DNA of 27,505 nucleotides from an uncultured Candidatus Saccharibacteria bacterium. GTDB taxonomy: Bacteria; Patescibacteriota; Minisyncoccia; Phycocordibacterales; UBA1006. A model generated the notes under the pieces. The model made no database searches. It worked only from the letters and a program-made list of their open reading frames with translations, and was not told the origin of the DNA. The stretch spans positions 1 to 27,505 of the forward strand of contig CAYYES010000004.1 in NCBI GenBank assembly GCA_964471025.1, in the 5' to 3' direction. Below are positions 5,811 to 9,009 of the stretch, piece by piece (position 1 is the first letter of the stretch; every line of letters begins with the position of its first letter). Both the position numbers and the translations under genes were made by a program.

Positions 5811-6244
5811 TTGTCGAGATAAATTATTTCAATTCCTAATTCCTTGGCTCGATCGTGTTCCCATGTCGCCCCAATGGATGATTGCCAGTCCGGTATGAAA
5901 TAAAATTTCTTGATTTTTCCTGTTTTGAAAAGTGGCAAATAGAATCCTTCTAAAATAACCATTTTGTCGCCACCGGATTGATCATAAAAGTATTTAATCT
6001 TTTCTTGGAATGGCATCTGATCAAACATTGCATTCCCTTCCTCGTAGCGTTCATCAATAACTTTCTGGAATCGTTCCAAGTTTTTCTCTCGGGAACCCAG
6101 CCCGCCACTTCCGATAGGGCCGGTAACCATTCCAATGTCACCATCTATCATATTTAATAACTTGAGCGCAAAATCTCTCATTTCTTCTACGGAAGCTACT
6201 TGCGATAATTCTTGAGCAAGATTTTCTGTCCAATAGCGTTTCAT
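5807..6244 (-). CDS. Hypothetical protein, DUF4406 / nucleoside 2-deoxyribosyltransferase-like fold
   Basis: VTGPIGSGG...NLERF...FDQMP...FIPDWQSSIGATWEHDRAKELGIEIIY resembles the DUF4406 pattern (GP..G; W..S.GA..E...A..LG). Family recognised by eye only. Confidence 0.55.
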   Translation of the reverse strand: MKRYWTENLAQELSQVASVEEMRDFALKLLNMIDGDIGMVTGPIGSGGLGSREKNLERFQKVIDERYEEGNAMFDQMPFQEKIKYFYDQSGGDKMVILEGFYLPLFKTGKIKKFYFIPDWQSSIGATWEHDRAKELGIEIIYLDK

Positions 6245-6309
6245 ATAATTCGAACCTTATCATCCGATTACGTATTTTGCAACAAAAATTTATGGTATAC
6301 TTGCTCCAT

Positions 6310-6504
6310 ATGAAAAACAACAACCTCTACAACCTGATGACCCAGTTGACCCAGGAAGCCCGATCATTGTGGCGCATTAAAAACGACTACATGAAAGACG
6401 CTGGTAAATCCAAGGAATTGAAAGCATTCTGGACAGAAATTGCATTGGAAAAGGAAGCATTGATCGCAGATCTCAAGAAGGTTATTGCGGTAGAAATGGA
6501 CTAG
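6310..6504 (+). CDS. Small helical protein (64 aa), possibly a ferritin-like half-bundle
   Basis: ATG at 6310 follows TGgTATACT (6293-6301). Sequence begins NLYNLMTQLTQEARSLWRIKNDYMKDA. The family call is tentative. Confidence 0.65.
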   Translation: MKNNNLYNLMTQLTQEARSLWRIKNDYMKDAGKSKELKAFWTEIALEKEALIADLKKVIAVEMD

Positions 6505-6532
6505 AAGAACATAGAACAAAGAACTTAGAACG
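6505..6532 (+). repeat. Heptamer array AAGAACA-TAGAACA-AAGAACT-TAGAACG
   Basis: Four tandem WAGAACN units. The innermost units overlap the S-F-stop codons of the four-helix gene. Confidence 0.9.
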
Positions 6533-6896
6533 AGTGTCCCATCGCCTTGCGCATAAATACGGTTAAAAGCTTTGCCACCTCGGTAAGGCTTTTTTCTAAT
6601 TCATCATGAACTCCCGACTTGATATATCCCAAATCTCTAGCAACCAAAATCTGACTTAAACATTCCATGGTTGATGCTTTTGCCATTAGATAAAATCTAC
6701 ATTTATCTTTTGCTGTACGCATCGTAAACCTTTCGGCAATATTTGAAACAATTGAAACTGAAGCTCTTTGTAGCTGATTAGAAAGGGCAAATCTTTCTTC
6801 CTGGGGAAAACTTTTTGTAATTTTATAAACAAAAAGCACAGCGTTGTGTGCTTTTTGCCAAACTACCAAATCTTTAAAAGTTCGTATTTCGCTCAT
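6525..6896 (-). CDS. Four helix bundle protein (23S rRNA intervening-sequence protein / Avd-like family)
   Basis: FKDLVVWQKA...YKITKSFPQEERFALSNQLQRASVSIVSNIAE...RFYLMAKAS..E..SQI..A.DLGY, the family signature. Confidence 0.92.
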   Translation of the reverse strand: MSEIRTFKDLVVWQKAHNAVLFVYKITKSFPQEERFALSNQLQRASVSIVSNIAERFTMRTAKDKCRFYLMAKASTMECLSQILVARDLGYIKSGVHDELEKSLTEVAKLLTVFMRKAMGHSF

Positions 6897-6918
6897 TAGC
6901 TAAATTATACCAACTCCT

Positions 6919-6945
6919 TGTTCTTTGTTCTAGTTCTCTGTTCTT
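6919..6945 (-). repeat. Heptamer array inverted relative to 6505-6532
   Basis: TGTTCTT-TGTTCTA-GTTCTC-TGTTCTT. Positions 6920-6932 are the exact reverse complement of 6512-6524. Confidence 0.9.
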
Positions 6946-9009
6946 TTAAATATCCAACTCCACCATCTTCGCATTGCTCTGGATAAACGATTTGCGCACC
7001 GACACGTCGTTCCCCATCAGCATGTCAAACGTTTTGTCGGCATCAATGGCATCATCGATGGTAACCTGTTTCAAGATGCGTCGCGCAGGATCCATAGTCG
7101 TTTCCCACAATTCCTCGGCGTTCATTTCACCGAGACCCTTGTAGCGCTGGACTGAAATCTTGGCAGACTTTTTGGCCTTTGCCTTGGTATCGGATTCGTC
7201 GGATTCTTCATCAGTTTCCTCGACAGAATCGTCAGCACCGGCCACTTCGCCACCCATGGCCTTGATGACCTTTTCTTTTTCCTCGTCGGAAAACGCATAG
7301 GCAACCTCCTTGCCTTTCTTGATTTTGTACAGCGGCGGCTGCGCGATATACAGATATCCCGCATCAATCACGGGACGCAGATAGCGATAAAACAGCGTCA
7401 GCAGAAGCGTGCGGATGTGCGCACCGTCGACGTCGGCATCGGTTGCAATCACGATTTTGTGATAGCGGATTTTTGAAATATCAAACGTTTCACCGATTGA
7501 TGTTCCTAATGCGATGACGATTGATTTAATTTCCTCGTTCGCAACCATTTTATCCAATCGTGCGCGTTCAACATTGAGCGGCTTACCCTTGAGCGGCAGG
7601 ATCGCCTGCGTTTTCTTGTCGCGGCCTTGTTTAGCCGTTCCCCCTGCCGAGTCTCCCTCTACGATAAATATTTCTGAATCCTCGGAATCCTTGGACTGGC
7701 AGTCAGCCAGTTTGCCCGGCAATGTGAATCCTTCCAGTGCACCCTTGCGCAGAATCGAATCCTTGGCAGCTTTGGCGGCCTTGCGCGCGCGCAGGGCGAG
7801 CACGGCCTTGTTAATGATGGCTTTGGCATCATCAGGATTTTCCTCAAGGAATGCTCCGAATGCTTCGGCAAACACGCTTTCTACGGCACCCTTGGCTTCA
7901 GGTGATCCCAATTTCGCCTTGGTCTGGCCTTCGAACTGGATTTCAGGCATTTTAACCGTCACCACGGCCGTCAAACCTTCCAGTACATCAGAGCCATCAA
8001 ACGATTCACCGTCCTTCAAAACTTTTTTCTCTTTGTTATAGCTGTTGATCAAACGCGTGAGCGCCGTCTTGAAGCCCGTCAGATGCATGCCGCCCTCGGG
8101 CGTTGAAATATTATTCGCAAACGGAACGATGCGCGATTGAATATCATCGACGTACTGCAGTGCGATTTCGACATTGATGTCACCCGCATTTTTGTCCACG
8201 TGGAAAATCTTGTCCTGAACGGCTTTTTGATTCTGGTTCAAGGAACGCACCATCGAAACGAGGCCTCCCTCGAAATAGAAGCTGAACGATGGTACTTCGT
8301 AACCCAATTCCATCATGTAGGTTTCGTTGTCCAAATTGATTTTGCCCGCATAGTCGCGCGCGTCCACCACCACGATTTTCAATTTTTTGCACAAGTATGC
8401 CTGTTCGCGCAAACGGTCCACGACGCGCTGGAAGTTGAATTTGACCTCCTTGAAAATTTCCACATCCGGTTCAAACGTAATCACGGTTCCGGTCTGTTTC
8501 GTTTTCGCAACGGCTTTTACCTTCGCCTTGGGTTTGCCCTGCGAATATTCCTGCATGTGCACTTGGCCTTCCTTGTGAACCTCGGCCTTCATGAAAATGG
8601 ACAAGGCGTTCACGACCGATGAACCCACGCCGTGCAAACCTCCGGAAACTTTGTAACCTGATCCCTCGCCGCCGAACTTACCGCCGGCGTGGAGCACGGT
8701 CAAAATGGTTTCGAGTGCCGAAACTTTGGTTTTGGGATGAATGTCAACGGGAATACCGCGTCCGTTGTCAACGACGCGGATGCGGTTGCCGGGAAGCAGT
8801 GCTACCTCGATATGGTCGGCGTGTCCGCCCATGGCTTCGTCGCGGGAGTTGTCGAAAATTTCCCAGATCAGGTGGTGCAAGCCGTCTGGACCAGTGGAAC
8901 CGATATACATTCCGGGTCGTTTGCGCACGGGATCAAGGCCCTCGAGGACCGTAATCGATTCAGCCCCGTAGGAGCCCGATTTTTTCGTTTTTTCAGTGTC
9001 TTTGGCCAT
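6946..9009 (-). CDS. gyrB: DNA gyrase subunit B
   Basis: VRKRPGMYIGS, LHAGGKF, GGLHGVG, toprim VEGDSAGG and TDADVDGAHI, QRYKGLGEM, and a C-terminal LDI. Confidence 0.96.
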   Translation of the reverse strand: MAKDTEKTKKSGSYGAESITVLEGLDPVRKRPGMYIGSTGPDGLHHLIWEIFDNSRDEAMGGHADHIEVALLPGNRIRVVDNGRGIPVDIHPKTKVSALETILTVLHAGGKFGGEGSGYKVSGGLHGVGSSVVNALSIFMKAEVHKEGQVHMQEYSQGKPKAKVKAVAKTKQTGTVITFEPDVEIFKEVKFNFQRVVDRLREQAYLCKKLKIVVVDARDYAGKINLDNETYMMELGYEVPSFSFYFEGGLVSMVRSLNQNQKAVQDKIFHVDKNAGDINVEIALQYVDDIQSRIVPFANNISTPEGGMHLTGFKTALTRLINSYNKEKKVLKDGESFDGSDVLEGLTAVVTVKMPEIQFEGQTKAKLGSPEAKGAVESVFAEAFGAFLEENPDDAKAIINKAVLALRARKAAKAAKDSILRKGALEGFTLPGKLADCQSKDSEDSEIFIVEGDSAGGTAKQGRDKKTQAILPLKGKPLNVERARLDKMVANEEIKSIVIALGTSIGETFDISKIRYHKIVIATDADVDGAHIRTLLLTLFYRYLRPVIDAGYLYIAQPPLYKIKKGKEVAYAFSDEEKEKVIKAMGGEVAGADDSVEETDEESDESDTKAKAKKSAKISVQRYKGLGEMNAEELWETTMDPARRILKQVTIDDAIDADKTFDMLMGNDVSVRKSFIQSNAKMVELDI

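Follow-up and report, generated by a model that had tools for sequence, protein, structure and literature searches.

A four-helix-bundle family gene between inverted heptamer arrays lies where relatives have only the gyrB terminator, and belongs to a set of repeat hairpins found in one Saccharibacteria genome but in none of eight sampled congeners

Genes of the PF05635/TIGR02436 four-helix-bundle family were first found in the intervening sequences (IVS) of 23S rRNA, where in Coxiella burnetii and Leptospira the 'S23p' ORF sits in the loop of a terminal inverted-repeat stem inserted in helix 9, 25 or 45, within elements of 428-444 nt that carry no transposase. In Coxiella, a 428-nt element with this gene family is closed by a 28-bp stem containing tandem GACAGAT heptamers, is cut mid-stem by RNase III, and has been proposed to be or to have been mobile (PMC4990558). 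The family is homologous to Avd, the accessory protein of diversity-generating retroelements (DGR). Other described systems resemble parts of this layout. In REP/REPIN-RAYT systems, a small gene encoding a HUH/Y1 (IS200-like) transposase is flanked by inverted copies of a repeat of 20-25-nt imperfect palindromes that is also scattered through the same genome as gene-less hairpin doublets, and each gene subfamily has its own repeat type. Rickettsia palindromic elements and MITEs are short hairpin-forming repeats without coding capacity that sit between genes and, translated through, inside essential genes. Lastly, tandem heptamers, often of about four units, have been reported between genes of Xanthomonas, Nostoc and Geobacter, and Xanthomonas has 70-75 convergent pairs per genome that could form stem-loops (PMC4692102, PMC2700814).

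We analysed a 27,505-nt stretch of DNA (hereafter the window; positions 1 to 27,505 of contig CAYYES010000004.1, assembly GCA_964471025.1) from an uncultured Candidatus Saccharibacteria bacterium with a genome of 645 kb in 69 contigs. A first-pass annotation made from the sequence alone had described positions 6505-6945 as a 441-bp cassette with a single AT-rich ORF and inverted heptamer arrays at its ends, fitted between two convergent stop codons, and this observation is confirmed base for base. On the + strand, 6505-6532 reads AAGAACA, TAGAACA, AAGAACT and TAGAACG in succession; this 3' arm of the cassette begins at the base after the TAG (6502-6504) of a conserved 75-aa ORF (6277-6504, + strand) and overlaps the stop codon of the cassette's own gene (6525-6527). 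The 5' arm (6917-6945) is the inverted array, with units of 7, 6, 7 and 7 nt, and reads AAGAACA, GAGAACT, AGAACA and AAGAACA on the gene's strand, starting at the base after the gyrB stop codon (6946-6948, - strand; gyrB, 6946-9009, - strand). The perfect 13-nt inverted match between 6512-6524 and 6920-6932 is real. Three AGAACNN units in a row occur nowhere else in the window, and none appeared in 100 shuffles. The cassette is 35.8% G+C, compared to 51% for gyrB and 47.8% for the genome. As the annotation had stated, we saw no transposase, and there is no direct repeat at the ends (6502-6508 and 6942-6950). The annotation's estimate of the stem requires correction: it had inferred an imperfect duplex of about 27 bp in gyrB read-through RNA, but when this RNA is folded the terminal stem is 7 bp, a 6-nt bulge, then 13 bp, or about 20-22 pairs (z = -4.0). 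Contigs of four public DNA runs of one wastewater study carry the cassette, two of them across both junctions, which excludes an assembly artefact.

The single intact ORF (6525-6896, - strand; 36.6% G+C) encodes a 123-aa protein that matches PF05635 (E 3e-33; 114.5 bits against a cut-off of 33.8) and TIGR02436 (E 2e-30; 105.3 bits against a cut-off of 24) above the curated cut-offs, and its nearest solved structure is the Xanthomonas protein 2GSC (E 3e-16). Within the cassette, an extended -10-like box, TGGTATAAT (6904-6912, - strand), lies 7 nt before the ATG at 6896, which is the spacing that the first-pass annotation had noted for leaderless genes across the window; the same spacing is seen in two other cassettes of this genome, on contigs C20 and C39. 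A consensus scan that also requires a -35 hexamer did not list this box, and it is a candidate promoter inferred from the sequence alone; a transcript starting there would lack the 5' arm, so that only read-through RNA would form the stem. A perfect 11-bp hairpin with A and T runs on either side (6830-6857) lies inside the codons for the conserved WQKA motif, in the 5' part of the ORF, and looks like a terminator on both strands. A further terminator-like hairpin followed by a T run on the + strand (6565-6593) could end the transcript of the convergent 75-aa ORF now that the ancestral terminator is gone.

To ascertain whether the cassette is an insert, we looked for the empty site in related genomes, as the first-pass annotation had proposed. 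Relatives that keep the layout of gyrB and the convergent small ORF, namely G004 in the same genus and G009, G035, G024 and G031 in the family, carry only an intrinsic terminator hairpin a few tens of nt long (roughly 40 nt; the gap between the two stops is 43 nt in G004) at this position, and the C-terminus of the small ORF is conserved in the relatives' loci L009, L012, L013, L014 and L017. The secF-lemA, corA-cysS and rnc-smc junctions, each filled by another cassette in this genome, are likewise empty in congeners and family members, and most of these empty gaps hold a terminator hairpin and, before the downstream gene, a -10 box. This genome has six PF05635 genes, whereas no match was found in any of eight congeners, and only two of 24 family members have a weak or broken one. 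One of the latter, in G024, lies about 300 nt from a reverse transcriptase gene and is probably a DGR Avd. More distant genomes of the order have eight copies (G039), three (G045) and one (G051).

All six PF05635 genes of this genome lie between inverted arrays of a 6-7-nt unit, each with a different unit (AGAACNN, AAGAAT, TTAGTAN, ATAGGTN, GCAAAAT and CCAAGAN), and all copies in G039, G045, G051 and a further relative, G017, also lie between inverted arrays of short, mostly 7-nt tandem units, close to or abutting the neighbouring start and stop codons. The units in this genome are 410-480 nt long and 36-40% G+C, and the other five lie between housekeeping genes (secF-lemA, corA-cysS, rnc-smc, rnhB-dnaE and rmuC-yqeY; gene names were assigned by eye from the translations). 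None of the six lies in rRNA. In the copy directly after the RNase III gene (rnc) and before smc (contig C9:6256-6692; locus L005:1436-1872), the 50-nt arms overlap the start of its own ORF, so part of the arm is translated. Because the two arms of each copy agree with each other while copies differ, complementarity is what is kept, not one sequence.

The arms travel with the gene. The six proteins are only 17-46% identical to one another, so they are not recent duplicates, and their nearest kin (54-63% identical) are found in other genomes, at other sites, with the same arm type. The rnc-smc copy pairs with copies in G045 and G039 (63% and 54% identical), all with AAAATG-type arms; the dnaE copy pairs with copies in G017 and G039 (59% and 45%), all of CCAA type; and the yqeY copy pairs with two G039 copies (56% and 53%), all of TAGTNNN types. 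Across 53 cassettes from many phyla, unit similarity rises with protein identity (Mantel r = 0.22; none of 2000 permutations reached it), and the share of pairs agreeing in at least 6 of 7 positions rises from 2% to 27%, although shared base composition among kin may inflate this correlation. Of the 78 best relatives in the genome collection that have both flanks, drawn from many phyla, 55 have arms scoring above the 99th percentile of mismatched controls, in a sample that is biased towards proteins like the armed ones used as the query. Fifty of these 55 are periodic, mostly with 7-nt units, and with 8-nt units in some Bacteroidota; 8-nt units (for example GGTTTATA) were seen at loci L170, L190, L217, L223 and L227, from Bacteroidota and other relatives.

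In addition to the cassettes, period-7 and pattern scans (a period-6 scan was swamped by codon periodicity) showed that the genome holds at least 12 gene-less hairpins made of inverted heptamer arrays with loops of 7-50 nt, together with solo arrays. Eleven of the twelve use unit types carried by resident cassettes: CCAA (at least eight hairpins), AAGAAT (two hairpins and two solo arrays) and ATAGG (one hairpin). The AGAACNN type of the window's cassette has no clear gene-less partner, its hits being at background level apart from one 19-nt inverted repeat at C20:10971-11104; AGAAC-CA is, however, the perfect CCAAGAA unit read in another register. Three CCAANNN units in a row gave 23 hits in this genome, seven in G039, four in G017 and none in the eight congeners, with four single hits among 34 relatives without the gene. 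In a sample of 301 genomes of the class, 135 of 174 genomes with PF05635 (78%) and 53 of 127 without it (42%) have at least one hit (odds ratio 4.8, tallied by hand). The first-pass annotation had held that arrays occurring genome-wide independently of the gene would count against its reading, and this condition is met literally; but the gene-less hairpins match the resident cassette types, and CCAA-type arrays are missing from all eight congeners that lack the gene, so they tie the arrays to the family rather than refuting the link.

Some of these hairpins lie inside genes. Two are in frame in the genes for the CCA-adding enzyme (C22:1606-1688; locus L142:468-550) and Dus (C43:1697-1784; locus L143:755-842), where they add about 28 residues that the congeners G001, G005 and G006 lack; at the very same codon, the congeners G004 and G008 carry a different, G/C-rich hairpin, suggesting that either one hairpin replaced the other or both target the same spots. 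A third hairpin lies in the rpoB-rpoC gap, without a direct repeat, and is absent from four congeners, whose gaps are 16-29 nt and hold no hairpin. Solo arrays of the CCAAGAA/AGAAC type lie in frame inside isoleucyl-tRNA synthetase, smc and other ORFs (C5:4700-4732, C9:8555-8588, C58:2075-2112 and C2:14030-14062), and the unit has no stop codon in any of the six frames. An apparent pair at C5:4700 and C5:5553 with an 820-nt 'loop' is not a cassette, but a solo array inside the isoleucyl-tRNA synthetase gene plus a solo array after its terminator. Two gene-less hairpins (C20:11162-11242, and C24, locus L147:7782-7861) share nearly identical arms (25 of 25 nt and 29 of 32 nt) but have unrelated loops of 16 and 21 nt, and the inner ends of CCAA-type arms are almost always CCAAAC / GTTTGG. 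A second gene-in-a-hairpin system, the 'Family B' of the first-pass annotation, has a parallel layout: two DUF559 (PF04480, endonuclease-like) genes (C7:9687-10232 and C19:7118-7599) each lie between long inverted repeats of 26 and 46 nt that contain a CCCCCTC...GAGGGGG hairpin, and the same G/C hairpin occurs without a gene, translated in frame, in enzymes, the CCA-adding enzyme carrying a second insert of it.

We next evaluated signatures that could indicate how the cassette works. First, in 59 of 68 armed cassettes the arm upstream of the gene has more G than C on the gene's strand (27.6% G against 10.5% C, p = 4e-10); the two arms are therefore not interchangeable. Second, mismatches inside arms are no more often G:U-compatible on the sense strand (53) than on the antisense strand (55), and most are transversions; a looser alignment gave 169 against 186. 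This gives no support to selection on an RNA stem, although the variable positions of the units add noise.

Taken together, the best explanation, in which we have moderate confidence, is that the cassette is a horizontally acquired insert of about 440 nt, comprising one PF05635 gene plus its own pair of inverted heptamer arrays, that has taken the place of the bidirectional terminator between gyrB and a convergent small ORF, and that it is the gene-carrying form of a family of heptamer-array hairpin elements that have entered this genome between genes and, in frame, inside genes. Our analyses show that the cassette is an insert relative to kin, that the arms are inherited together with the gene, that gene-less hairpins of matching type co-occur with the gene, that the base composition is foreign, and that the arms have a fixed polarity. 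By contrast, it is by inference only that the two arms act as a nucleic-acid hairpin that is the recognised part of the element; that the encoded protein, probably an oligomer that binds nucleic acid like its homologue Avd, probably acts on these arrays; that RNase III might cut the stem of about 20 bp in gyrB read-through RNA as it does in the homologous 23S rRNA IVS; and that the gene's own transcript may start at the -10 box inside the loop and so escape that stem. Several findings weigh against this explanation. No movement has been seen, and no contig joint skips 6505-6945 in the four DNA runs, although contigs hide rare variants. There is no target-site duplication, no recognisable recombinase in the cassette, and no known catalytic motif in the protein. 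The unrelated loops of gene-less hairpins with near-identical arms are not predicted by simple copy-and-paste, six distinct lineages present in one genome and none in eight congeners are hard to explain by six separate arrivals, the AGAACNN type has no clear gene-less partner in the genome, CCAA arrays also occur in 42% of genomes without the gene, and the correlation between arms and protein may partly reflect shared base composition among kin.

The interpretation given in the first-pass annotation, a minimal mobile or RNA-processing unit, is thus partly supported: the mobile half holds up, whereas the half likening the cassette to an IVS that is processed from RNA remains an analogy. The corresponding rival explanation, which we consider unlikely, is that the module is mainly an RNA device whose arms form a long stem in read-through transcripts, that RNase III would cut this stem and free gyrB mRNA from the cassette, giving an 'IVS in an mRNA', and that the stem would have taken over the job of the lost terminator, with the gene a passenger or a regulated host gene. 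This view is consistent with the fold of the read-through RNA, the replacement of terminators at four sites, the presence of an RNase III gene with one cassette directly after it, the RNase III cleavage of the Coxiella IVS, and the arm polarity, which fits a strand-specific role. However, no RNA run for this organism was found, the mismatches show no wobble bias, and hairpins of the same kind lie in frame inside essential ORFs such as those of the CCA-adding enzyme and Dus, where efficient cleavage would destroy the mRNA. The patchy, all-or-none distribution and foreign G+C content also point to an invader rather than a host regulatory device, and the stem here has only about 20 pairs and a 6-nt bulge.

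A second alternative, that the protein is an Avd-type accessory factor working with the genome's reverse transcriptases and that the arrays are incidental or retro-element products, is very unlikely. The protein is a distant homologue of Avd (PF22296, E 2e-7), and the genome has four to five reverse transcriptase genes of DGR size (C19:2559-3533, C18:1774-2856, C17:8714-9727, C67:67-1047 and C25:9789-10193), two of which have an upstream ORF ending in an Asn/Trp-rich (N..W) segment that we take for a variable-protein end. The match to the Avd equivalog model NF033474 is nevertheless far below its cut-off (30.9 against 80 bits), the reverse transcriptase genes lie on other contigs and at least three have an adjacent small Avd-like ORF of their own, and their distribution does not follow the cassettes: they occur in four of the eight congeners that lack cassettes, and none was found in G051 or G017, which have cassettes or remnants. 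Lastly, although the terminator stem of G004 and G008 contains AAGAACT and starts right after the gyrB stop as the arm does, and although heptamer hairpins at two in-ORF sites sit at the codon where these congeners carry a different hairpin, we reject the reading that the gene landed in the loop of the resident terminator, as an IVS replaces an rRNA tetraloop, and that the stem then grew into arrays by slippage and arm-to-arm copying, given that across four sites the arms share no more sequence with their own ancestral spacer than with the spacers of other sites, that arm types are shared by related proteins at unrelated sites in other genomes, and that a gene-less hairpin entered the rpoB-rpoC gap where congeners have none.

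A more far-reaching possibility, which the evidence allows but which we regard as doubtful, is that PF05635 proteins are the dedicated partners of a previously unrecognised class of hairpin repeats built from inverted heptamer arrays, in a REPIN-RAYT-like or autonomous/non-autonomous pairing run by a non-HUH, Avd-like four-helix-bundle protein. Each protein lineage would then recognise its own 7-nt unit, the elements would colonise gaps between genes, tolerant loops of proteins and rRNA helices, and the classical rRNA IVS would be only one habitat of the same element. PF05635/TIGR02436 is a large family of unknown function, carried by 174 of the 301 genomes sampled in this class and often in several copies, and the rRNA IVS that first revealed it have been unexplained for more than 30 years. 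That the gene outside rRNA travels with its own heptamer arms, displaces terminators between housekeeping genes in a 645-kb genome, and co-occurs with gene-less hairpins of matching type gives a concrete hypothesis, namely that the protein acts on its own heptamer hairpin. Hairpins inserted in frame also explain odd lineage-specific insertions in conserved enzymes, which is relevant to genome annotation. Searches of a library of papers found none that links PF05635 outside rRNA with heptamer arms; the new points here are the four filled-versus-empty sites in one genus, the all-or-none contrast with eight congeners, the type matching between cassettes and gene-less hairpins, the arm polarity, and the negative results of the wobble and terminator-origin tests.

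Compared to the described systems, the cassette is closest to the ORF-bearing 23S rRNA IVS, with which it shares the protein family, a similar size (441 nt against 428-444 nt), an ORF in the loop of a terminal inverted-repeat stem that in the IVS is built partly of tandem heptamers, and the absence of a transposase. It lacks the defining feature of an IVS, residence in rRNA, as it lies between protein-coding genes and no rRNA family matched at 6000-7400 in an Rfam scan that returned only two chance-level hits; RNase III cleavage is here only inferred by analogy, and the element comes with gene-less hairpin relatives, some inside ORFs. Its protein is a distant homologue of Avd with the same fold, but it is distinct from Avd in that it is not next to a reverse transcriptase or template repeat and scores below the Avd model cut-off. 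Rickettsia palindromic elements and MITEs share the placement of short hairpins between and inside genes, but here there are no terminal inverted repeats of a known transposon and no target duplication, the arms are arrays of a stop-free 7-nt unit, and a gene-carrying form exists. The intergenic heptamer pairs of Xanthomonas, Nostoc and Geobacter, which our results may also explain, were read as G-quadruplex or regulator sites and were not linked to a gene family (PMC4692102, PMC2700814). Finally, the layout of a gene flanked by inverted copies of a repeat that is also dispersed as gene-less doublets is that of REPIN-RAYT systems, and was observed for three of the six cassette types here (CCAA, AAGAAT and ATAGG), though not clearly for the window's AGAACNN type; the protein, however, matches only four-helix-bundle models and has no HUH/Y1 transposase motifs, the repeats are tandem heptamers rather than imperfect palindromes, copy numbers are low, the loops of the doublets are not conserved, and inheritance looks horizontal and patchy.
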